Below, in pieces: positions 35,605 to 47,048 of a stretch of DNA of 64,000 bases. A program made the translations under genes and the position numbers. The stretch is from NCBI GenBank assembly GCA_963664375.1, contig OY761449.1, positions 2,315,087-2,379,086 of the forward strand, read 5' to 3'. The notes under the pieces are model-generated. The model was not told the origin of the DNA. It was given only the letters and a program-made list of their open reading frames with translations, and did no database searches. This DNA comes from Dehalococcoidia bacterium (GTDB lineage: Bacteria; Chloroflexota; Dehalococcoidia; Lucifugimonadales; UBA3495). How positions within the stretch are numbered: the stretch's first letter is position 1; every line of letters begins with the position of its first letter.

Positions 35605-35770
35605 GGAGTGTTCGCAAACTATAACCAGAGTAGCAGTGCCCCGATTTGCAGCATTGCCGGATAGTTTTCGGCCCCGTCACCACCTGGTCGGGGAGGTCCG
35701 CGTGCAAGTGCTGATAGTGGCCCAAGCGCCGTAGCATACCTCTGGTATACTGCGGCCCTTGGGAGGACAG

Positions 35771-37471
35771 ATGCGAGTAGTCTTGCTGATTTTCTTGGCT
35801 ATCATGAGTTTAGCGGCCATTTCCTGCGCCAGCGGGGATACTGAAACCATCAGCGCGCCAACGGCTTCCGAACCTACGCCTGACGTTGCGGCAACAGTGC
35901 AGGCAGGAGTGGAAGGAACTCAAGTAGCTCAGGCTTCCATAGACGCCACTGTGGAAGCTCGAGTTGCTGCTGCCCTTACTACACCACATCCGACAGCCAC
36001 GCCGTACCCTACTGCTACCCAATATCCCACAGCGACACCCTATCCTACGCTGCCGTTGCCCACTCTGACGCCGCGGCCTACGCCTACGCCACGGCCAACA
36101 CCCACTCCACGGCCAACACCCATACCGAGGCCCACTTCGACGCCACTCCCTACTTTAACATCCGAAGAGCAAGCATTTCACCTGATCGGATACGCTGCTC
36201 TTTTTGCTGGTGGCCCCGGCGCAATCTACGTCGGCGACTTGAATCAGTTGGCCGGTACGGCAGTAACAGACGAGTATCTGTGGGACTACGGGACAGATTT
36301 GGGTGACGATGACGGGAATGTTCCCTTATACGCCCTCGAAAAGCATCGGTGGATCTTTGAGTCCGAATACTACCGGTCGCTTCTGGAGAAAGCCCGTCTC
36401 ACAAACCCAACGGGCCTGGATTCCACCGGTGAACGCATTATCTTGCAGCATACCTGCATAAATTCTCAGTTGCTCTGGTGCAAACATCTGGAAACTTACT
36501 TTGTTCCCAACGTGGAGGAACGCACTAACGGTCAGGTCACTTTCAACATTACGTCCTTCCCCGAATTGGGTTTGTCTGGCCTTGACACCGTTTCCTTATT
36601 GGATGACGGTACGCTCAGCATGACTGAAATCTACGGTGGGTATGTGGGCGGCGAATACCCGACGCTGGCCGTGCAGTATCTCTGGGGGTTGTGGCCAGAC
36701 CATCAGAGTCACTTCGCCGTTCAGACCAACATCGCCCCCGATCTGAACAGGGTCGTGGAAGACGAGATGGGCGCCAAGGTGCTGATGCGCAACTGGATCG
36801 CTGGCGACGATCAGTTCATCTTCAGCTACTATCGTCTTAGGAACCCCGATGACTTCATCGGCCTCAAGACCCGAAGCCACTCCGCCGAGATGTCCGACTG
36901 GATTGACCACATGGGTGCGGCGGCCCAATTTATGGCCTTCGCTGAGGTCTACACCGCTCTGGAGCGCGGCATCCTGGACGGCGCTGTAACTGGCGCCAAC
37001 CCAGGTCTCAGCCAGCGTTGGTACGAAGTGACCGACAATATGAACGGGCCTGTGTACAGTTTCAATTCCACCATTAACGCAATTAACGGAGACGTTTGGG
37101 ATAGCATTCCAAGCGACTTGCAACAAATTCTGCTCGAAGAAGGCGCGAAGCAGGAACTAGAGGCCCTGCGCCTCGCCGCCATACAAAACATTACCGGTTT
37201 GCAACGCAACGTGGAAGCCGGACTGGAATTTGTGGAATTCAGCCCCCGGATTCGGCGCATGAGTTTTCGGGCAGGCTACGAGAACGTACTTCCCAATTGG
37301 CTGAGCAGGTTGGGCTATCCTGCATGGGGCCATGACACCGTGGACGTTTTCAACAACAAGATAGGCCCGATGGTCGGCCTGCGCATCGAGCTTGATGGAC
37401 AGGTAGTAAAAACTCGGATAACCGAAGGCCCACACGCAGGCAAAACTATGGAGCAAGTGCTGGCCGAGTAG
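35771..37471 (+). CDS. TRAP-transporter DctP-like solute-binding lipoprotein with a long Pro/Thr-rich tether
   Basis: Signal peptide and lipobox (LAAISCASG). About 100 aa of low-complexity PT/PRPTPT linker. The DctP-like motif FAEVYTALERGILDGA and an overall SBP-like C-terminal 400 aa. Confidence 0.65.
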   Translation: MRVVLLIFLAIMSLAAISCASGDTETISAPTASEPTPDVAATVQAGVEGTQVAQASIDATVEARVAAALTTPHPTATPYPTATQYPTATPYPTLPLPTLTPRPTPTPRPTPTPRPTPIPRPTSTPLPTLTSEEQAFHLIGYAALFAGGPGAIYVGDLNQLAGTAVTDEYLWDYGTDLGDDDGNVPLYALEKHRWIFESEYYRSLLEKARLTNPTGLDSTGERIILQHTCINSQLLWCKHLETYFVPNVEERTNGQVTFNITSFPELGLSGLDTVSLLDDGTLSMTEIYGGYVGGEYPTLAVQYLWGLWPDHQSHFAVQTNIAPDLNRVVEDEMGAKVLMRNWIAGDDQFIFSYYRLRNPDDFIGLKTRSHSAEMSDWIDHMGAAAQFMAFAEVYTALERGILDGAVTGANPGLSQRWYEVTDNMNGPVYSFNSTINAINGDVWDSIPSDLQQILLEEGAKQELEALRLAAIQNITGLQRNVEAGLEFVEFSPRIRRMSFRAGYENVLPNWLSRLGYPAWGHDTVDVFNNKIGPMVGLRIELDGQVVKTRITEGPHAGKTMEQVLAE

Positions 37472-38765: not shown

Positions 38766-38821
38766 AGCGAGTGCAGAGCAACCACTGAGTGCCCCTTACC
38801 CCGAAAGGCTGGAGGTCCGAA

Positions 38822-39781
38822 ATGGCTACCGTCAACACCGTTCTCGGAACCATCGATTCATCGGAAATGGGGTTTACCCTGCCCCACGAGCACCTGATCG
38901 ACTCGTCGGCAGGCATCCGCATCAGCTATGGGGAGCTGGAACTGCGGGACCGGTCGCTGGAAATGGCGATTGAGGACTTCAGCAAGGCAAAGGCTGGCGG
39001 CGTCGACACCTTGGTCGAGGTCTCGCCAATGGACTTGGGCCGCGATGTGGCGCTGATGCGGCAGGTTTCCGAGGCTACGGGGGTCAATATCGTCTGCTGC
39101 ACTGGCTGCTGGCTGGACATCCCGCGCAGCTTCTGGTGGCGCGATAAGGATTTCATAGCCGACCTGTGGGTTCGGGAGATCGAGGAGGGCATCGACGGCA
39201 CGGACATCAAGGCGGGCATCATCAAGGTCGCCACCAGCGACCCCATCACCGAGCACGAGGAGCTGATGCTGCGCGCCTCGGCCCGTACCCACCTGCGCAC
39301 CGGCGTCCCCATCACCACGCACACGCCGCCCACGTCGCGCATCGGCGAGCGGCAGGTAGCCATCCTAACCGAGGAAGGCGTCGAGCCGCAGAACATCTAC
39401 GTCGGCCACATCAACCAGACCCTCGACCCCGACTACCACCGGGAACTGGCCCGCCTGGGCGTCTGGCTGGGCTGGGACATCAACAACGCCTTCGGCCGCC
39501 CCCACCTGCCGCCGTGGGAGCAGCGGGCCGAGTACCTGAAGAACCTGCTGGACGAGGGCATTGAGTCCAACATGATGCTGTCCCACGACTGGAACGTGGT
39601 GCTGTCCCGCATCGGCACCTCCGGCTTCCCCAACCGCGACCAGAACCCCGACGGCTTCCTGTGGCTAAGCAACAAGTTCATCCCCCAGCTCATGGAGCTA
39701 GGAACGAAGCAGGAAACCATCGACCGCATGATGATAGAAAACCCCCGCCGCCACTTCGAGAGCGTCAAGCCGGAGGCGTGA
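38822..39781 (+). CDS. Phosphotriesterase-family (PTE/PHP) amidohydrolase
   Basis: GFTLPHEHL metal-binding motif near the N-terminus, with a TIM-barrel amidohydrolase pattern (TTHT, GHIN, SHDW). ATG 38822 with a GGAGG RBS. Confidence 0.85.
   Translation: MATVNTVLGTIDSSEMGFTLPHEHLIDSSAGIRISYGELELRDRSLEMAIEDFSKAKAGGVDTLVEVSPMDLGRDVALMRQVSEATGVNIVCCTGCWLDIPRSFWWRDKDFIADLWVREIEEGIDGTDIKAGIIKVATSDPITEHEELMLRASARTHLRTGVPITTHTPPTSRIGERQVAILTEEGVEPQNIYVGHINQTLDPDYHRELARLGVWLGWDINNAFGRPHLPPWEQRAEYLKNLLDEGIESNMMLSHDWNVVLSRIGTSGFPNRDQNPDGFLWLSNKFIPQLMELGTKQETIDRMMIENPRRHFESVKPEA
39726..39781 (+). repeat. Direct repeat copy A (the functional 3' end of the PTE gene)
   Basis: gcatgatgatagaaaacccccgccgccacttcgagagcgtcaagccggaggcgtga. 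It recurs at 40568-40624 with 3 substitutions and a 1-nt insertion. Confidence 0.9.
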
Positions 39782-39786
39782 CTATC

Positions 39787-39832
39787 AAAAACCCCTCTCC
39801 CTTGAGGGAGAGGGTTAAGGTGAGGGAGAAAA
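39787..39832 (-). repeat. REP-A element (diverged)
   Basis: aaaaacccctctcccttgagggagagggttaaggtgagggagaaaa. Confidence 0.75.
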
Positions 39833-39880: not shown

Positions 39881-40159
39881 ATGCCCGTAGATGATGCGCC
39901 GCAACAGATTCTCTCGGTCTCCATTGCCGAGTTCCAGGCCCAGTGCCTGAAACTGGTATCCGAGGTTGCTGATTCCGGTTCCGAGGTAGTCATCACTAGG
40001 GACGGGCAACCCGTCTCGCGGCTTGTGCCTATTCGCAAGCCGAAAGCCGCGCCCTTCGGCCGTGACCGGGACATTATCCAAATTCACGGCGACATCATCG
40101 AACCCCTAGACATCGAATGGGAAGCCGAATCGAATCCTGACAGAGTTCTCAATCCATGA
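39881..40159 (+). CDS. Phd/YefM-family antitoxin
   Basis: 92 aa. SIAEFQAQCLKLVSEV...VVITRDGQPVSRLVP is the Phd/YefM N-terminal pattern. AAGGAG RBS. ATGA overlap with the toxin gene. Confidence 0.85.
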   Translation: MPVDDAPQQILSVSIAEFQAQCLKLVSEVADSGSEVVITRDGQPVSRLVPIRKPKAAPFGRDRDIIQIHGDIIEPLDIEWEAESNPDRVLNP

Positions 40160-40554
40160 TTCTGCTGGATACTCATGTCCTGATACACCTGCTGTTCGAG
40201 GAAAGCAGGTTGGGAAGGCAAGCGCGGCAGTTGATCGACACGGCGTGGTCGGATAGCAACGTCGCGGTATCCGCGATTACCTTCTGGGAAGTGGCTATGC
40301 TCCACGAGAAGGGCAGAATGACACTGCTCAGGGACATCGATTCATGGAGGGACAGCCTCTTTGACGATGGACTTGTGGAAATCCCCGTAGATGGCAAAAT
40401 TGGTATCAGGGCGAACTCATTGGCCGACTTCCATCGCGACCCAGCTGACCGGATCATCGTCGCCACGGCGATGCAAGGCCACCAACTGGTGACGGAAGAC
40501 CGCCACATCCTGGAATGGCCAGGCCCACTCAACCGCCTGCGAGCCACGGCGTGA
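40156..40554 (+). CDS. vapC: VapC-type PIN-domain toxin
   Basis: MILLDTHVLIHLL start, with the acidic PIN residues (D5, E..., D in PADRIIVATA, D in VTEDRHI). Confidence 0.85.
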   Translation: MILLDTHVLIHLLFEESRLGRQARQLIDTAWSDSNVAVSAITFWEVAMLHEKGRMTLLRDIDSWRDSLFDDGLVEIPVDGKIGIRANSLADFHRDPADRIIVATAMQGHQLVTEDRHILEWPGPLNRLRATA

Positions 40555-40567
40555 CAGTGGCCATCGC

Positions 40568-40624
40568 GGCATGATGATCAAAAACCCCCGCCGCCACTTC
40601 GAGAAGCGTCAAGCCGGAGGCGTA
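40568..40624 (+). repeat. Direct repeat copy B (decayed duplicate of the PTE 3' end)
   Basis: gcatgatgatcaaaaacccccgccgccacttcgagaagcgtcaagccggaggcgtaa. The extra A breaks the frame relative to copy A. Confidence 0.9.
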
Positions 40625-40664
40625 ATTTCAGCTTGTCTTCATAAGATATGCCTTGACCATTCTC

Positions 40665-42011
40665 TCAATCAGGGAGTTTATTCTTGGCATACTTCAATAT
40701 GCTTTCCATAGACGAATCTTGCCACTTTTCGAGCCATTCTATTGCTTGTTGCAAGTATTCTTTCGACTCCAAAAACCTGATGAAGTCCACAGGCCTGTTA
40801 AAAGGCCCTTGGGAATCATTCAACTTGATGATCCTACCCAAGACTTCTATAGCTATTGCACGAAGTCTCAAATAGTCTTGTTTTCCGCATTCTCCGAGCG
40901 CAGCACCATGAATCACGTTGGATCTGCGCAAATACAGGTCGTGTATAAGTCGCAGATCGAAGAATGTCTCATCTAAAGCAATTGCCAAAAGCAAATACCT
41001 CAGCGAGAGCGCTTCACCTTTACGACCGTCATCAATAGTCGAAAGCATCGCTTCCAGTGCTGTACACAAGTCAACGATCTTGTGATCGTAAATTTCTCGA
41101 GTAATGCTCATACCAATCCATTCTACGCCACGAAGTATCGCATTACGAAACTTATCGGGCATAGTACTGTTATAAATGGAATCCAGCGACTTGGCGAATT
41201 CTTTGGTCGAATCCGCCAAATCTCCAGTAAAATCCAACGTCATGGGTGTACGTGTACGTCCTCCACCTATAGACATCGCTCCTGTATTGGGTTCAATTTT
41301 TTTGATGACACGACCCCCGCCTCGTCTCTGGAGCAATTGCTCATCCCAAAGCGCAACACCCTTTGCGGAACCAATGCAAGCTATCCTAAGTGCATTCAAG
41401 GCACTTTCCAGCAATGCTTGAGCGCGTTCGGCAGCTTTCTCACAAGTTCCTGCATAGACTGTGACTATACCGACTGGGTGACCAATAATCTCATCGAGCA
41501 TCTCCTTAAAGAGATCATTGGCTGTCTCATAGCCCCAATCCACAGCTATCTGCTGAGTAAATTCCCGAAAATGTACACCGCCAACAATTATCGGCTCAAT
41601 GGGAAATTTAACCCATTCTATAGCAAAGGCGACTTCGTACTTTTCATGTGGTTTACTAATTTCAGAGACAAACTCACTAACCTTCGATCGGCGCTCTGAA
41701 TTTCTCTTGAATTGCTCTTTGTTTGAGATCAAATCCTGAACTAAAACGTCAAGTGCCTCGTTAAGTTCATGACGAGTTAGATGTTCCACTGCTGAATCAA
41801 TCTCTAGCGACCCAGAAGCTTCCAAATACAGTCGGGCCTCCCTTCCCCAGAGGGAATAACCAGAATTGTTGTCCTCTCCATCTGGCGATGATGTTGGATT
41901 TCGAATTACCGCCCATCCAATATCGCTGCCAGAGGGATTGTCGTCGGATTCCCTAACTATCGCATCTACCAGATTTTGAATCCTACTGCGTGTTCGATTA
42001 TGCATTGACAT
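40665..42011 (-). CDS. HEPN-type (Rx4H) domain protein with a large unknown N-terminal region (448 aa); horizontally acquired by composition
   Basis: The C-terminal helical segment ALEAMLS...LRYLLLAIALDE...IHDLYLRRSNVIHGAALGE carries the RxxxxH (RSNVIH) HEPN signature. GC is about 40-45% by eye versus over 60% in the flanks. Confidence 0.6.
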   Translation of the reverse strand: MSMHNRTRSRIQNLVDAIVRESDDNPSGSDIGWAVIRNPTSSPDGEDNNSGYSLWGREARLYLEASGSLEIDSAVEHLTRHELNEALDVLVQDLISNKEQFKRNSERRSKVSEFVSEISKPHEKYEVAFAIEWVKFPIEPIIVGGVHFREFTQQIAVDWGYETANDLFKEMLDEIIGHPVGIVTVYAGTCEKAAERAQALLESALNALRIACIGSAKGVALWDEQLLQRRGGGRVIKKIEPNTGAMSIGGGRTRTPMTLDFTGDLADSTKEFAKSLDSIYNSTMPDKFRNAILRGVEWIGMSITREIYDHKIVDLCTALEAMLSTIDDGRKGEALSLRYLLLAIALDETFFDLRLIHDLYLRRSNVIHGAALGECGKQDYLRLRAIAIEVLGRIIKLNDSQGPFNRPVDFIRFLESKEYLQQAIEWLEKWQDSSMESILKYAKNKLPD

Positions 42012-42041
42012 CAGTCAACTAACCTTCTGTTCTTTGAACTA

Positions 42042-42067
42042 GCCCGTTCCGAATCATCGGAACGGGC
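42042..42067 (-). terminator. Stem-loop downstream of the VWA gene (candidate terminator)
   Basis: GCCCGTTCCGA-ATCA-TCGGAACGGGC, a perfect 11-bp stem 41 nt after the stop at 42108. No clear U-tract. Confidence 0.4.
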
Positions 42068-42107: not shown

Positions 42108-45100
42108 CTACCGCCGGGCGAAGCGGCGGGCGGTCAGCTCGCGGTAGAGCATGGGGAGGCGCTCGGGGAGGGCCCAGATGTCGCCGAGGACTTCGTAGCC
42201 CATGTCGCCGCACATGCTCTTGAGGTAGTCGTGGCCCGCTTTGTCCACCGTCAGGCAGAACGGGGTGATGGACTTCTGGCGGGCCTCCACCAGAGCCATG
42301 TGGGTGTCGTGGACGGCGTACTCCTTCTCCACTCCCTCGCGGCTGTAGCCCCGATCCTGGGGCCGGCCGTCGCTGACCAGGAACATTATCTTGGTGTGCG
42401 CGTCCTGGTTTTCCAGCTTGGTGATGGCGTGGCGGATGGCCGCGCCCATGCGGGTGGCGTGTAGCGGCGTGATCTTGTCGATCCGGCGCTTGACCTTGTC
42501 GCCGAAGTTTTCGGTGATGTCCTTGATGACGTAGAACTCGACGTTCTCGCGCCCATAGCCGGAGAAGCCGTAGATGCCGTAGGTATCGCCGATATTTTCC
42601 AGGGCCTGCACCAGCAGCGCGGTGCTCTCCTTTTCGAGGTCGATGATGCGCTTGTAGTTGCGGCGCACCAGCCCCTCGCGGCGGCGGCGCAGCCAGACCA
42701 TGTACTCCACCGGATCGTCGGGCGCGTCGCGGTCGTCCACCATCTGGCGGCCCTCGTCGATGGCCTCGGCGGTGGACGCGCTCATGTCCAACAGGAACAC
42801 CACGGCCACGTCGCGGCGGTTGCGGTTGCGGTGCCAGTAAATCTTGTCGTCCGGCGGGATGTTCATCTTCAGGTCAACCCAGGCCTCAAGCGTCGCGTTG
42901 AGGTCCAGGTCTTCGCCGTCGATGAGCCGGTAAGTCTTGCGCATGCTCTCCGGCATGATCAGCTCGAACTGCCGCCGGATGTGGGCCGAAAGAGAGGCGT
43001 AGTTCTTCAGGGAGTCCTGGTAGAAGTTTATGTCGCCCTCCTCAACGGTCTTTTCCTTGACGATGCACCAGCGGGGCTTGTAGTCGTTGGCCCGGAAGTC
43101 CCACTCGTCGTACAGGTAGGTCTGCGGCTCGCGGGTCTCCAGCTCGCCGCCGGAGTCGTCGTCGTGCATCAGCGGGCCGTAGCCTTGGCCCGGCTGGGAG
43201 TTGGGAGGTGGAGCGCCCGCCTCCTTCATGATGTTCTGGGCGAAGGTGGTCATGGCGTCGGTGATGTCGCCCTGCTCGGCGTCCAGCTCCAGCTCGTCGC
43301 TGTCCTGCAAGAGCTGCTCCAGCATTTCCTGGGTCATGGGCTGGGCCTCGCCGTCCTGGTCGCCGCTGTCGGCTTGCAAGCGGGTGAGCAGTTGCACCAT
43401 TTCCGGCTTGAAATCGCCGCGATAGTCCACCGGCTCCGGTGACTCGTAGGACTCATCGCCCTCCTGGCTTTCGCCGCGCTGGTCCATATCGGCCTGTAGG
43501 CGGTCCACCAGGTCCTGGTATTCCTCCTCGTTGAAATCGCCGGGTTCCTCCAGGTCCTGCTCGTCCCAGTTTTCCTCGTCCTCGGTCTGGTTGGGCAGGC
43601 GGGAGATTATCTCGTAGGCCCGGAGGGTGGCCTCGGCGGTGTCCTCCACGTTGGCCTCGGCGGTGCGAAGCTGGTGCAGGATGCGCGACAGCATCTCCGC
43701 CACCTCCTCGTACCCTTCGGGCACGGGAAGGCCGGTGAACCTTTCTAGGCTCATGTGAACTAGCAATTCAACCATGGCCTGGTGGAGCGGCATCTGTTCA
43801 ATGGGAGGGCGGCCGTCCAGGGCATCCTGCTGGACGCGGGAGGCGGCCCGGCGAATGCCGGGGTACTCCACATTTATGCGATAGTCCAGCCGTCCGTCCT
43901 CCAGTACGGTGAACAGGTCAAAGGCCAGCTTGCCGTTCTCGAACAGAGCCAGGAACCGGCCAATGTCGGTGTACGCGCGTATCGTGCCAGCGCTTTCCGG
44001 GGGCATCATTTCGGTGGAGCCGCCCGGCCCCACTTCCATGAACGTTACCTCGGCGTCCTCGCCCGCCATTTCCCGGGCCATCTCGATCATGGACTGGCGG
44101 GCAGCCTGCTCCTCGGCGCGCTTGGCGTTGATTTCCTCTTCCACGCCGTGTCGCCGGTCTTCGAACTGCGTTGCGGGCTTGTCGAACAGGAACTCGAAGC
44201 TGCCGAATTCCAGGCGGCTCACCTGGTGAGTGGAGACCACCTTGAACCAGGAAAAGTTGTCCTGCTTGTTGGAATACCGGTCGACCACCGGCGGCAGGAA
44301 CACCTTGGAGCCGTCGGTGGAGGCCGTGTCTTCATCCACCCAGCCGATGTTGCGGCGGACAAGCTCCTGGGAGTTCATGATCTCAATGCCAGCACCCGAC
44401 AAAGCCCGGCAGTACAGGCGTATGATGCCCTTGACCCGGTCCAGCTCCAGGCTGGAGGAAAGGGTCTCCAGCATCTGCTCGGAGGTGTTGGACTCAATCT
44501 TGAAGAACGCGATGCCGCTCTCGGGATTTTCCTGGAGCAGCCGCATTCCGTGCTGGTACCAGGTGTCCAACTGGCTGACCGTGATACGGGTCAGCACGCT
44601 GTCCAGGCTGCGCAGGAAGGGCGGCACGGCCTCCGGAGCCACGGCCACCAACTGGTCGCACAGGTCCAGGATGTAGCCCTGGTTGCCCTGCGGCACGCGC
44701 CCCAGCGCCTGGGTGCCGTCGGACAGGAAGCGCGAGGTGTCGCGCAGGCCCACCTTGGCCAGCCTCTCGCCCAACTTGAGGAAACGGCCAGTCTGGGCCT
44801 CGTCGACATGCTGCAAGGCCCTCGGCACCAGCTCCAGGCAGGTCTTGACCTCGCGCCAACTGGTGTCGATCAGGGCGCGGGTCATGGCCAGGAAGGGTTC
44901 GCGCTCGCGGCCCATGCCCGGCAGCACGTCCTTGCCCAGCGTCAGGCATTCGCTCGCCACGTCGTAGGACTTGTAAGACAACGCCTCGATCAGCGAGGCG
45001 AATACCTCAACGTCCCAGAAGGGCAGGCTGCGCACCAGTTCCGGCGACACTTCGAAGAACTTGGCCGCCAGGGTGCTGGACTTCCATGTCCCTTTGTACA

Positions 45101-45434
45101 GGCTGCGGCCCAGACCCGCCCAGCGGGGGATGTACTGCGGCCTGAGATTGGGCACGATGGCGACGCTGGACTTGAAAAAGGCCACCGCCAGGGTGGGCGA
45201 GTCCTGCGCCAGGTAGGTGCCGCACCGGGCCCACTGCATGAAGGACGGGAACGACAGGAATCGGCAGACCTCGGGGCTAACCTTGTAGTACTCGATGGCC
45301 GCCTCCCAGGATCTGATGGTCTGGGAGCCTATGGACACGCCCTCCTTGGCCCAGAGGACGACCTCGTCGGGGCCAAAGGCGGAACCCACCGCGCCCACCG
45401 ATTCCTGGTAGGCCTCGAGCACCGCCGGGGGCAT
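42108..45434 (-). CDS. Large VWA-domain protein, NorD/CbbO/CobT-like (1108 aa)
   Basis: C-terminal VWA domain with MIDAS DMSAST (VAVVFLLDMSASTAE...FLVSDGRPQD). An acidic low-complexity linker lies upstream. Start set to ATG 45434 (MPPAVLEAYQ), because the track ORF extension overlaps the Nudix gene. Confidence 0.8.
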   Translation of the reverse strand: MPPAVLEAYQESVGAVGSAFGPDEVVLWAKEGVSIGSQTIRSWEAAIEYYKVSPEVCRFLSFPSFMQWARCGTYLAQDSPTLAVAFFKSSVAIVPNLRPQYIPRWAGLGRSLYKGTWKSSTLAAKFFEVSPELVRSLPFWDVEVFASLIEALSYKSYDVASECLTLGKDVLPGMGREREPFLAMTRALIDTSWREVKTCLELVPRALQHVDEAQTGRFLKLGERLAKVGLRDTSRFLSDGTQALGRVPQGNQGYILDLCDQLVAVAPEAVPPFLRSLDSVLTRITVSQLDTWYQHGMRLLQENPESGIAFFKIESNTSEQMLETLSSSLELDRVKGIIRLYCRALSGAGIEIMNSQELVRRNIGWVDEDTASTDGSKVFLPPVVDRYSNKQDNFSWFKVVSTHQVSRLEFGSFEFLFDKPATQFEDRRHGVEEEINAKRAEEQAARQSMIEMAREMAGEDAEVTFMEVGPGGSTEMMPPESAGTIRAYTDIGRFLALFENGKLAFDLFTVLEDGRLDYRINVEYPGIRRAASRVQQDALDGRPPIEQMPLHQAMVELLVHMSLERFTGLPVPEGYEEVAEMLSRILHQLRTAEANVEDTAEATLRAYEIISRLPNQTEDEENWDEQDLEEPGDFNEEEYQDLVDRLQADMDQRGESQEGDESYESPEPVDYRGDFKPEMVQLLTRLQADSGDQDGEAQPMTQEMLEQLLQDSDELELDAEQGDITDAMTTFAQNIMKEAGAPPPNSQPGQGYGPLMHDDDSGGELETREPQTYLYDEWDFRANDYKPRWCIVKEKTVEEGDINFYQDSLKNYASLSAHIRRQFELIMPESMRKTYRLIDGEDLDLNATLEAWVDLKMNIPPDDKIYWHRNRNRRDVAVVFLLDMSASTAEAIDEGRQMVDDRDAPDDPVEYMVWLRRRREGLVRRNYKRIIDLEKESTALLVQALENIGDTYGIYGFSGYGRENVEFYVIKDITENFGDKVKRRIDKITPLHATRMGAAIRHAITKLENQDAHTKIMFLVSDGRPQDRGYSREGVEKEYAVHDTHMALVEARQKSITPFCLTVDKAGHDYLKSMCGDMGYEVLGDIWALPERLPMLYRELTARRFARR

Positions 45435-45478
45435 CTTGGCCAGTTCCTGTTCTATCTCGGGTGTTGGAGCGCTGCTTG

Positions 45479-46009
45479 TCAATTCAGACCCTCGCTTTCC
45501 AGCCCGTCCTCCAAAAGTTGCAGGAATTGCTGGAGGATTCTTGCGGTGGCACCAAAGACCAGGTGCTTGCCGTAGGCGTAGGAGTGAACCGTGCTCGCTC
45601 CGTCCGCCTCCCAATGAGTCTCGACGCGCACGCTGGACGCATCCAGCAACGCGCTTACCGGGAATTCAACGATCTCGGCTATTTCGTCGGCGCTGGGCCG
45701 GAAGTCGTAAGGATGCTCTATGGTTCCCGCGAACACGCTCACCCGGTACTGGGACCGGGTGGCAACTTGGTCCATCTCGCCGAGCACCGTGATGTCCTCC
45801 CGGCGGATGCCCATTTCCTCTTCGGTTTCCCGGAGCGCCGTATCCAGCGCACCGCCATCTTCCGGATCCGTCCTGCCGCCGGGGAAGGAAATTTCCCCCT
45901 TATGGTGCTCGACGTGCTGGGAGCGCTTGTTCAGCAGGAGCCAGTGGTCTCCATCCTTGGGATAGAGAAGCACCATAACAGCAGCGGGCGTCAAGCCATC
46001 CCCGGCCAC
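45479..46009 (-). CDS. Nudix hydrolase, CoA pyrophosphatase-like
   Basis: Nudix box GEISFPGGRTDPEDGGALDTALRETEEEMGI, preceded by the LLLNKRS..H..G element characteristic of CoA pyrophosphatases. Confidence 0.8.
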   Translation of the reverse strand: MAGDGLTPAAVMVLLYPKDGDHWLLLNKRSQHVEHHKGEISFPGGRTDPEDGGALDTALRETEEEMGIRREDITVLGEMDQVATRSQYRVSVFAGTIEHPYDFRPSADEIAEIVEFPVSALLDASSVRVETHWEADGASTVHSYAYGKHLVFGATARILQQFLQLLEDGLESEGLN

Positions 46010-46106: not shown

Positions 46107-47048
46107 CTACTCGAATATGGAGGATGCAACCTCTTCGAGACTGCGCTGTAGCTCGGGGTCGTCGGTCAGCGTCCAGACGATGGCAACCTGGCAGGCGCGG
46201 CGGGGCGGGATGCCCTCGGAAATCAGGCGGCCAGCGTAAATCAGCAGCCGGGTGCTGGCGCCTTCCTGCAAGCCGTGGTCTTCCAGGTTGCGGATTTTTT
46301 CGCCCAGTTTGGCCAAGGCGTCCGCCTGCTCCTCGGTGCAGCCGGCCTCCGCCTGGATTATCTCCCGCTCGATTTCCCGGGGCGGGTAGTAGAACTCGAT
46401 GGAGATGAAGCGCTGCCGGGTGCTGTGCTTCAGGTCTTTCAACGCGCTCTGGTAGCCGGGGTTGTAGGAGATGCAGAGCAGGAACCGGTCATCGGCCTCA
46501 ATGATGGTGCCGGTCTTTTCCACCGGAAGAATCCTGCGGTGGTCCGTGAGGGGGTGAATCAGCACGGTGGTGTCCTTCCGCGCCTCGACCACCTCGTCCA
46601 GGTACAGGATGGCGCCAGCCTTGACCGCGCGGGTCATCGGCCCGTCGATCCAGCGGGTGCCCTCGGCGTCCAGCAGGTAGCGGCCCACCAGGTCGCTGGC
46701 GGTCAGGTCTTCGTGGCAAGCGATGGTTACCAGCGGAACGCGAACCTCACCCTCTCCAACTTCCTGGGTGCTTAATCCGCTTGTTCCCGAAGTGGGGCTC
46801 GCGTCCTTTGCCTGCTCCTTGATCACAGTGAGCGGGCGGCCCAGCTTCCAGGCCATGTACTCGACGAACCGGGTCTTGCCACAACCGGTCGGGCCCTTGA
46901 GCAGTACCGGGATGTGCTGCTGGTAAGCCGCGGCAAACAGTTCCATCTCGTCGCCCACGGCGCGATAGTACGGCTCGGCTCGTACCAGGAACTCCTCGAT
47001 CGCGTACTCGCTGTAATGTAATTGTTCTTGCTCTACGGCTTCTACCAT
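46107..47048 (-). CDS. CbbQ/NirQ/NorQ/GvpN-family MoxR-type AAA+ ATPase
   Basis: Walker A GPTGCGKT, then [37 protein letters not shown] and [22 protein letters not shown] roughly 30-aa insertion ([26 protein letters not shown]) follows GRPL. Confidence 0.9.

Follow-up and report, generated by a model that had tools for sequence, protein, structure and literature searches.

A gene at positions 40665..42011 on the minus strand of a 64,000-nucleotide stretch of DNA from a Dehalococcoidia bacterium (contig OY761449.1, positions 2,315,087 to 2,379,086; the whole stretch is called the window below) probably encodes a stand-alone HEPN endoribonuclease, a latent single protein of the abortive-infection type and seemingly a compact and very diverged relative of ApeA. 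We put the probability of this reading, which was derived from comparisons of sequences and structural models, at about 0.6. ApeA is said to have been described by Gao et al. in 2020 as a single-protein HEPN anti-phage system. The gene is an intact, ATG-initiated open reading frame (ORF) of 448 amino acids (aa) plus a stop codon, as judged from the ORF list and its translation. An earlier note, made by a model from the letters of the DNA, had called it an orphan with a HEPN-type C-terminus; the peptides quoted there are present in the translation, with RSNVIH at residues 363-368. Homologues of the protein are referred to here as the family, and conservation was read from an alignment of 81 members reaching down to 20% identity.

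The C-terminal domain is very probably of the HEPN type

The HEPN superfamily was defined by Anantharaman et al. 2013 (PMC3710099). Its hallmarks are a four-helix up-down bundle of two alpha-hairpins, a conserved Rx4-6H motif with a polar residue right after the arginine and, often, an upstream acidic residue, typically within Ex3[KR] in helix 2 (PMC3710099). In the protein studied here, a helical bundle corresponding to the HEPN core spans residues 283-405 (40797..41165, minus strand), as indicated by a model of the domain, Foldseek, a PDB profile search and hhalign. The domain-only model, built from 48 sequences, reached a predicted local distance difference test score (pLDDT) of 94.5 and a predicted template modelling score (pTM) of 0.89. 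It consists of helix a0 (286-304), H1 (308-323, with E320), H2 (331-345, with K331, E333 and R338), H3 (353-367, with Y360 and R363), a loop (368-376, with H368 and G369) and H4 (377-401). Within the RSNVIH motif (40908..40925, minus strand), R363 is predicted to lie in the last turn of the helix 353-367, which ends at I367, and H368 to be the first residue of the loop. In the model, this placement at the end of helix 3 matches the HEPN requirement exactly.

When compared by Foldseek with 350,542 PDB chains, the domain model ranked 2hsb/AF_0298 first (probability 1.00, TM 0.68/0.67, root-mean-square deviation 3.7 A over 127 columns) and the HEPN protein 4nqf second (probability 0.96, TM 0.62/0.54), with the HepT-type toxins 8yuf, 8xdj and 8xeh and ST0689 (1wol) further down the list. 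These are the best structural matches to the C-domain of the family, and such minimal HEPN proteins share with it a compact four-helix core which has no large insertion between H2 and H3. However, they are stand-alone proteins of about 120-150 aa, whereas the family has a conserved N-terminal extension of 282 aa, and the identity between the two is only 9-14%.

An Rx4H motif found in a single sequence is not evidence in itself: it arises by chance in 49% of shuffles of the query protein, which also contains a second one, REIYDH, at residue 305. It is conservation across relatives that gives the motif its meaning. Both R363 and H368 are invariant in the 81 aligned relatives, and we therefore consider the motif significant. 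The same holds for E320, K331, R338 and Y360 (81/81 each); all six residues fall in the C-terminal bundle and the query carries every one of them. Position 364, directly after the arginine, is Ser in 69/81 members and Asn in 10/81. With respect to the acidic residue, E320 of helix 1 is the invariant one, and helix 2 carries E333 (70/81)-x4-R338 (81/81), not Ex3[KR]. Residues conserved in at least 90% of the sequences are L69, L87, W298, D309, L315, L323, P353 and G369. The bundle is also the best conserved part of the protein as a whole, with a top-residue frequency of 0.50 and an entropy of 2.20 bits; the frequency amounts to 0.35-0.37 in the N-terminal region, the Mid region and the tail (described below), and to 0.29 in the linker.

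This invariance bears on the possibility that the domain is HEPN-like but catalytically dead and serves as a binding or scaffold module only. Loss of RNase activity is indeed known from some HEPN families (PMC3710099). Inactive families, however, have typically lost the Rx4-6H motif, whereas R363, H368 and four further polar or aromatic residues persist here in 81/81 members, and we find such a dead module highly improbable. Since fold, motif position and conservation all agree, the HEPN assignment is well supported and we hold it to be very probable. The earlier note had thus read the C-terminus with its intact Rx4H correctly, as the domain model, Foldseek, the invariance of the motif and the PDB profile matches (see below) concur.

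The protein has a three-part architecture

A full-length AlphaFold2 model built from 37 homologues (pLDDT 83.8, pTM 0.75) shows two regions in front of the HEPN core. The N-terminal region, residues 1-106 (41694..42011, minus strand), is modelled as helices with two short strands and belongs to the more variable parts of the protein (top-residue frequency 0.35, entropy 2.89 bits). No relative of it was detected, and hhalign gave no aligned counterpart in ApeA; it is a candidate sensor or oligomerisation module. It is followed by an alpha/beta region, residues 107-282 (41166..41693, minus strand), named here Mid, with modelled strands at 123-132, 141-150, 179-187 and 229-238, a long helix at 190-215 and a loop of low confidence at 241-254. 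The family motif of this region reads YEV...VxVxAGxxxxAxERAxxxxDxALxxLR. Downstream of the HEPN core, residues 406-448 and the stop codon (40665..40796, minus strand) form a C-terminal helical tail (modelled helices 407-414, 417-427 and 433-445), of which the residues up to about 415 align with the segment after H4 of ApeA in hhalign.

Two matches of the full-length searches were set aside. The only PDB matches of the full-length profile, designer pentatricopeptide (PPR) repeats, are an artefact, in which one weak helical hairpin is summed over the repeats; they originate from profile positions 400-441, that is from the C-terminal tail. Csm6, at rank 26 of the full-length Foldseek search, was not used as evidence.

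Variants of this architecture were seen as well. One protein of 486 aa (P0136) has only the C-terminal ~190 residues in common with the family (HEPN and tail; hhalign E 5e-50), its N-terminal 296 aa being unrelated to the family and having no Pfam match, and four short proteins of 155-180 aa (P0195-P0198) consist of the C-domain alone. These may reflect a modular exchange of the sensor half, or else artefacts of assembly or gene calling.

Kinship with ApeA is supported at the level of the HEPN domain

ApeA is a single-protein abortive-infection tRNA anticodon nuclease that assembles into decameric or dodecameric rings, for which structures of Ec1-Ec4/Thr1ApeA are available (PDB 9hxb/9hxd/9hxi/9hxj; bioRxiv 10.64898/2026.01.26.701840). 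A profile of the C-domain of the family, searched against 177,635 distinct PDB sequences, returned five matches, four of which were ApeA (Ec3ApeA 9hxj at E 0.026; Ec2ApeA 9hxi, 9hxd and 9hxb at E 0.19-0.35), the fifth being a weak match to Cas7 (8ane, E 1). Each ApeA was aligned in two collinear blocks, 'NLWIA(L/I)ESL' with 'DLCTALEA' and 'IYRTRNxIVH' with 'LYxLRSxVVH'. Counted along this alignment, Ec2ApeA R502 falls on R363 and H507 on H368, so that the RSNVIH motif is matched with R502-N503...H507 of Ec2ApeA. The R502A substitution abolishes the defence activity of Ec2ApeA (bioRxiv 10.64898/2026.01.26.701840).

For a profile-to-profile comparison, ApeA ORFs were recovered from viral contigs, expanded to 353 homologues and condensed to a profile of 119 sequences, which was compared with the family by local hhalign. 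This profile replaced an earlier one of nine sequences, with which the helix-1 block alone had been aligned; in plasmids and phages, a search for ApeA sequences by tblastn of short fragments gave no match. The ApeAs of the Ec2 and Ec3 type on IMG/VR viral contigs (L014:1984-3732 and L023:1981-3732) are 100% and ~65% identical, respectively, to the Ec2ApeA PDB fragment.

The C-domain gave two collinear matches with ApeA, scoring 26.5 (P=0.0053) and 25.5 (P=0.0076). Among 100 column-shuffled ApeA profiles, the best match scored at most 25.3, the second at most 17.7 and their sum at most 40.6, and the reversed profile scored 14.8. With the full-length protein, residues 107-336 were aligned to ApeA 185-390 (204 columns, score 39.7, P=5e-4, probability 31%) and residues 355-415 to ApeA 494-554 (score 31.3); here the shuffled profiles scored 15.8 +/- 2.5 (maximum 22.9) and the reversed profile 17.0. 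The motifs aligned in the bundle are, family first, DLCTALEA with NLWIAIESL (E320 with E371), KGEAL with TIEHI (E333 with E387) and LYxxRSxVIHG with IYRTRNxIVHxG (Y360 with Y499, R363 with R502, S364 with N503, H368 with H507). The Asn that follows the catalytic Arg in ApeA is thus also present in 10/81 family members, most of the family having Ser.

The first of the two full-length alignments crosses the ApeA Mid domain, which comprises residues 199-309 (bioRxiv 10.64898/2026.01.26.701840). In it, KYEVAFAIE is paired with EYSVYFNAD and VYAGTCEKAAERAQALLESALNALR with VKALDPFTARRVAERNLKLASTLLSL, and a second form of the matching motif pairs VYAGTCEKAAERAQ..ALNALR with VKALDPFTARRVAE..ASTLLSL. 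After removal of the HEPN columns, residues 107-214 still matched ApeA 185-287 with a score of 28.2 (P=0.003); column shuffles reached 13.5 +/- 2.1 (maximum 20.1), and the reversed profile reached 15.9.

These comparisons support a kinship with ApeA at the level of the HEPN domain. Beyond sequence, ApeA and the new family are alike in being stand-alone genes whose product bears its HEPN domain at the C-terminus and has a non-catalytic N-terminal half, and both are sometimes found in or beside restriction-modification (R-M) operons. Among the groups named in the earlier note (Abi, ApeA and MAE_18760-like), the evidence points to ApeA.

A different single-protein system, DARNA, is a HEPN anti-phage tRNase of 456 aa triggered by an infection-derived nucleic-acid cue (bioRxiv 10.64898/2026.02.22.705581). 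It is similar in size to the family proteins; as a relative it was rejected, because its domain order is reversed (HEPN at 1-159, followed by a Pds5-like helical C-domain) and no match in sequence or structure was obtained. As a side observation, the PADLOC model of DzbB (Dazbog) weakly matches residues 504-542 of the ApeA P0303, in the region of the catalytic block (E 0.0011), and also weakly matches two family members (E 0.006), which hints that the HEPN-type motif is common to DzbB too.

The family is large and is overlooked by curated libraries

The description of the gene as an orphan did not hold. A word-indexed search of 5.8 billion proteins yielded 53 homologues, nearly all of ~450 aa and none with a Pfam domain; the query is a 100% match to one of them (P0001). 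An exhaustive hidden Markov model (HMM) search with the family profile, covering 1.84 billion representatives of 50%-identity clusters, returned 2,276 representatives at E<=1e-3, 727 at E<=1e-10 and 223 at E<=1e-30. Among the 150 matches listed of the 2,276, almost all are 430-470 aa long and were aligned over their full length. Because of this number of representatives and the nearly uniform full length of those listed, the family is, judged by its sequences, a large one with a fixed architecture.

Curated libraries gave no meaningful match, neither for the query (Pfam, NCBIfam and PADLOC) nor for sets of 37 and 81 family members (Pfam and PADLOC); a lone match to HEPN_RiboL-PSP in one member (E 0.06) was ignored. 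Pfam is uninformative on ApeA membership, since ApeAs of the Ec2 and Ec3 type lack a Pfam match as well: those on the two viral contigs had none at E<=0.01, and a precomputed Pfam domain was present in 0/120 listed homologues. We conclude that Pfam does not cover the Ec2/Ec3 branch of ApeA.

The sole member with a named organism, P0140, is a 'hypothetical protein' from a metagenome-assembled genome (MAG) of Thermomicrobiales (Chloroflexota). A scan of 185,579 species genomes detected six loci, all in Chloroflexota or Dehalococcoidia MAGs; as a single narrow peptide pattern was used, six genomes is a lower bound. As far as its members are named, the family occurs in Chloroflexota, unlike ApeA, and it appears to circulate there as a one-gene cassette. 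One copy of 345 aa on a 4.4-Mb chromosome is truncated (P0044; L027:10001-11038), and another protein, of 618 aa, has an N-terminal extension with a fragment of an rve_3 integrase (P0011). Both suggest decay of copies and their disruption by mobile elements.

Family members lie in variable neighbourhoods and have no conserved partner

No conserved partner gene was found at the 11 distinct loci examined. The small ORFs adjacent upstream or downstream are unrelated between loci, and for this reason the idea of a two-gene toxin-antitoxin (TA) system was rejected. Three of the 11 contexts lie directly beside R-M systems. In two of them a Type ISP R-M enzyme is located directly upstream, accompanied by an integrase (L003) or by a TIR protein binding cyclic nucleotide monophosphate (cNMP), a pentapeptide-repeat protein and a transposase (L028). 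In the third (L031), a gap of 8 nt separates a member 24% identical to the query from the complete Type I hsdM/S/R operon downstream of it, an arrangement that may be PrrC-like. Seen in order, the segment L028:2813-11618 resembles a defence island, with a helix-turn-helix regulator, the Type ISP enzyme, the pentapeptide-repeat protein, the cNMP-binding TIR protein of the CAP12/PCTIR kind, a 230-aa ORF, the family member and the transposase. After hsdM, hsdS and hsdR, the segment L031:497-7603 contains YgjP-like and GIY-YIG ORFs as well as a Ser/Thr kinase.

PrrC and RloC are latent, R-M-linked HEPN RNases which cut tRNA anticodon loops during phage infection, and both ApeA and PrrC-type HEPN proteins are known to occur inside R-M operons (PMC3710099). 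The protein could accordingly be imagined as an R-M-linked latent anticodon nuclease of this kind, silenced by a partner R-M enzyme and freed when a phage inhibits the latter, and the three contexts just described, especially the 8-nt gap to the Type I operon and the Type ISP enzymes directly upstream, speak for it. However, R-M linkage is not obligatory in the family: most contexts have no adjacent R-M system, none was found in the annotated 35.7-47 kb of the window, and the R-M types vary between loci. Moreover, PrrC and RloC carry an N-terminal ABC-ATPase, whereas no P-loop or ABC match was found by Pfam in the query or in the 81 members. We regard an R-M-guarding role as improbable, and favour the stand-alone enzyme.

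Several of the remaining contexts are also rich in mobile and defence genes. NACHT-type ATPases, an integrase or resolvase and transposases surround the members at L006 and L007, and resolvases or recombinases together with transposases occur at L004/L005 and L029/L030. At L001 (the same place as L009) there is a bPH_3/SHOCT gene upstream and an AAA_23/DEAD cluster ~5 kb off, and at L027, the locus of the truncated copy, DndB is encoded ~9 kb off. In the window the gene is accompanied by Phd/VapC, and at L032 only transporters and metabolic genes are present. Variable neighbourhoods, rich in mobile and defence genes, are what would be expected of a defence cassette.

The frequent recombinases and transposases could also surround an addiction or TA-like toxin that stabilises mobile DNA and has no dedicated anti-phage role, its neutraliser lying within the N-terminal/Mid region or being not yet recognised. 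Among our structural matches were HEPN toxins such as HepT, which are classic toxins of TA systems, and the Phd/VapC cassette that the gene adjoins in the window is itself enclosed by a 55-bp direct repeat. HepT, however, is paired with an MNT antitoxin, whereas the family has neither an MNT neighbour nor any other conserved small partner ORF; in the Pfam tables of the neighbours no nucleotidyltransferase (NTase) domain was found. With ~450 aa and a conserved multi-domain N-terminal half, the family proteins also differ from the minimal HepT toxins of ~130 aa. An addiction toxin is thus an unlikely explanation, and the single-protein abortive-infection enzyme is preferred over it.

As a third alternative, the gene might encode an RNA-processing enzyme of Chloroflexota with a housekeeping or regulatory role, in which HEPN would serve RNA maturation or turnover and the AT-richness would be coincidental. 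HEPN proteins do act in RNA processing (Las1, Swt1, Ire1/RNase L; PMC3710099), all six loci of the genome scan and P0140 belong to Chloroflexota, and a few contexts, those of the window and L032, are purely metabolic. However, mobile and defence genes are often found next to family members. In addition, synteny is not conserved across the 11 loci, occurrence is sporadic (six in 185,579 species genomes, with the single narrow search pattern) and truncated copies such as P0044 (345 aa) exist. Finally, the base composition is consistently foreign: the gene lies 3-14 GC points under its flanks in 11/11 homologue loci. We therefore judge a housekeeping role very unlikely. The uniformly low GC also means that AT-richness points to a gene pool that is foreign and mobile, and need not reflect a recent event in this genome; of the proposal that the gene had been acquired recently, the foreign origin stands and the recency is not supported, as AT-richness is a trait found across the homologue loci.

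Observations that weigh against the proposed reading

Several results count against the reading of the protein as a latent, ApeA-related defence RNase. As for structure, the Foldseek E-values of the HEPN matches are weak (0.17-0.4), which is expected for small helical bundles. The full-length model matched nothing significant in the PDB or BFVD (best E 0.48 and 0.46), and no ApeA structures were returned, although the library may not hold them. The Foldseek comparison of the whole protein, which the earlier note had proposed as a check, thus gave nothing significant, whereas that of the C-domain was headed by HEPN proteins at ranks one and two.

As for sequence, the hhalign probabilities against ApeA are low (5-31%). 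The PADLOC model of ApeA (PDLC02157) detected 0/81 family members at E<=10, whereas it detects Ec2-type and Ec3-type ApeAs at ~1e-13 and divergent ApeAs at ~1e-6. The Mid match was outscored by one of 80 shuffles made in 15-column blocks (34.6); block shuffling is a harsh control, because truly matching blocks stay intact. An HMM search of the PDB with the Mid region alone did not recover ApeA, the top match being an insignificant one to RpoL (E 0.19). Since one block shuffle outscored the match and the Mid-only search missed ApeA, we downgraded the homology of the Mid regions to tentative. Accordingly, the claim that the N-terminal 300 aa cannot be assigned to any family is upheld for residues 1-106, which have no counterpart, and is questionable for residues ~107-282, in view of their tentative alignment with ApeA Mid.

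The two proteins also differ in build. The query, with 448 aa against ~583 in ApeA, is ~135 aa shorter, and its N-terminal domain (106 aa) cannot be aligned with that of ApeA (~184 aa). In ApeA the HEPN domain is split by large insertions before H1, between core helices and after H4, a feature which the family lacks; in particular, the ~100-aa insertion between H2 and H3 is absent. In hhalign, family residues 337-354 correspond to Ec2ApeA ~391-493, and the domain model is a compact bundle. Ec2ApeA binds a deoxydinucleotide in a pocket formed by T36, S40, I41, M42, E74, R148, R152, Y401, Y469, H487, R490 and Y525 (bioRxiv 10.64898/2026.01.26.701840). Most of these residues lie in segments without an aligned counterpart in the family, Y525 falling inside the aligned H3-H4 block (ApeA 494-554). 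As most of the pocket residues and the ~100-aa insertion are without a counterpart, the sensing mechanism of ApeA cannot be carried over to the family, which may possess a different pocket.

As for genomic context, the 11 loci make up a small survey and not a statistical test of enrichment. The neighbourhood is largely metabolic both at L032 and in the window, where the gene lies outside any defence island. The proposal that the gene is a single-gene effector at a defence locus fits the lack of a conserved partner and the R-M, NACHT, TIR, recombinase and transposase genes near its homologues, but not the window itself.

Base composition and surroundings of the gene in the window

The gene has a GC content of 0.448 and a GC at third codon positions (GC3) of 0.421, compared with a GC content of 0.624 for the whole window, and is therefore far more AT-rich than its surroundings, as had been noticed by eye. 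Its GC is the minimum among all 1,347-bp windows (mean 0.624, standard deviation 0.036; about -4.8 standard deviations). The neighbouring genes for a von Willebrand factor type A (VWA) protein, CbbQ, a phosphotriesterase and an M24 peptidase have GC3 values of 0.81-0.89. The low-GC segment spans only ~40625-42050, which is practically the HEPN gene by itself.

The neighbours are those that had been named. On one side, convergent with the gene, are Phd (39881-40159) and the VapC/PIN toxin (40156-40554). Upstream and on the same, minus strand are a VWA protein of 1,168 aa (42108-45614), a NUDIX ORF (45479-46009) and a CbbQ/NorQ-type AAA+ ATPase (46107-47048), the NUDIX ORF lying between the other two. 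The VWA protein is unusually long, with an acidic, low-complexity middle part; its longest ORF, which starts with TTG at 45614, shares 136 nt with the NUDIX ORF, and its true start is therefore probably further downstream. Phd/VapC aside, the genes checked within 35.7-47 kb are metabolic or housekeeping (DctP, M24 peptidase, phosphotriesterase, NUDIX, CbbQ/VWA). They include a DctP-family (TRAP) solute-binding protein on the plus strand (35759-37471), in which the signal or lipobox region is followed by a long linker of Pro/Thr-rich repeats (PTPTPRPTPTPRPTPTPRPTPIPRP...), and the phosphotriesterase gene (38789-39781).

Between the stop codon of the VWA gene (42108) and the ATG of the HEPN gene, direct reading of the sequence revealed a perfect 10-bp hairpin with a 6-nt loop on the minus strand (GCCCGTTCCG-atgatt-CGGAACGGGC; 42042-42067). 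According to the GC profile it forms the upstream boundary of the low-GC segment. It is not followed by a T-tract, which is why a scan for consensus terminators did not call it; it is possibly a terminator of the CbbQ/VWA unit that lacks a U-tract, in a high-GC genome. A Shine-Dalgarno-like AGAAGG (42023..42028, minus strand), to which a function in translation initiation can be tentatively assigned, precedes the ATG at 42011 by 11 nt, and the start at M1 agrees with the N-termini of homologues. Given the hairpin ahead of the gene and the AGAAGG upstream of its ATG, it seems more likely from the sequence that the HEPN gene is expressed autonomously than by read-through from the CbbQ/VWA genes; co-transcription with them is unlikely in view of the hairpin and the sharp GC boundary. 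It had been suggested that the gene ends a MoxR-VWA operon. While it does lie downstream and on the same strand, this membership is doubtful, because the hairpin intervenes and the drop in GC begins there.

A direct repeat of ~55 bp (94-100% identical, spacing 843-844 nt) flanks the Phd/VapC cassette at 39726-39779 and 40569-40623, with a partial third copy at 39775-39795. The first copy forms the final ~18 codons of the phosphotriesterase gene and the second lies just past the vapC stop codon. In its sequence arrangement the repeat looks like an att-type duplication, left by integration of the TA cassette into the 3' end of the phosphotriesterase gene. As the HEPN gene starts directly past the second copy, the spot seems to collect small cassettes. 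No repeats were found that flank the HEPN gene itself, the 55-bp repeat bracketing Phd/VapC instead, and no RNA gene, nor a tRNA that might have served for integration, was detected in the vicinity of the locus.

Proposed mode of action and significance

With regard to dimerisation, latency, trigger, RNA target and anti-phage phenotype, we infer the following course of events. If the protein behaves like every HEPN RNase characterised so far, two subunits would pair through their C-terminal HEPN domains, and R363 and H368 would form the basis of the resulting composite RNase site, which would need no metal. Catalysis, RNA binding or contacts at the dimer interface may involve S364 (or N364), Y360, E320, K331 and R338. 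Until an infection-associated cue is detected, residues 1-282, which make up the N-terminal and Mid regions, would keep the enzyme off. Once activated, the enzyme would cut cellular RNA. Its most probable target would be tRNA anticodon loops, as these are cut by ApeA, DARNA and PrrC alike. Translation would then halt and phage replication would be blocked.

Defence loci are well known to encode HEPN domains joined to uncharacterised N-terminal regions. What is new here is a family of 2,276 clusters that was missed by every curated library tested and that has a compact ApeA-like core, which lacks the insertions of ApeA and apparently also its known sensing pocket. It is conceivable, though we would put it somewhat below even odds, that the family is an anti-phage system, widespread and so far undescribed, in which one protein, a 'mini-ApeA', combines an ApeA-type HEPN core, and possibly its Mid region, with a shorter and different sensor and a different trigger. 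The dinucleotide pocket and the ring-forming insertions of ApeA would in that case have been replaced, and the assembly might differ.

ApeA and DARNA serve as model systems for how a single polypeptide can both detect infection and unleash a toxic RNase. More than 2,000 clusters missed by Pfam, NCBIfam and PADLOC would represent a blind spot in defence annotation, especially in little-studied environmental phyla such as Chloroflexota, and an HMM made from the 81-sequence family alignment would allow such genes to be annotated immediately. The family keeps the catalytic core of ApeA, lacks its insertion and seems to lack its known ligand pocket. It could thus serve as a natural minimal scaffold to find out which of its parts ApeA requires for latency and activation, and which further infection cues such proteins respond to. 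If the 'mini-ApeA' proposal is true, these proteins would respond to a different infection signal than ApeA does.

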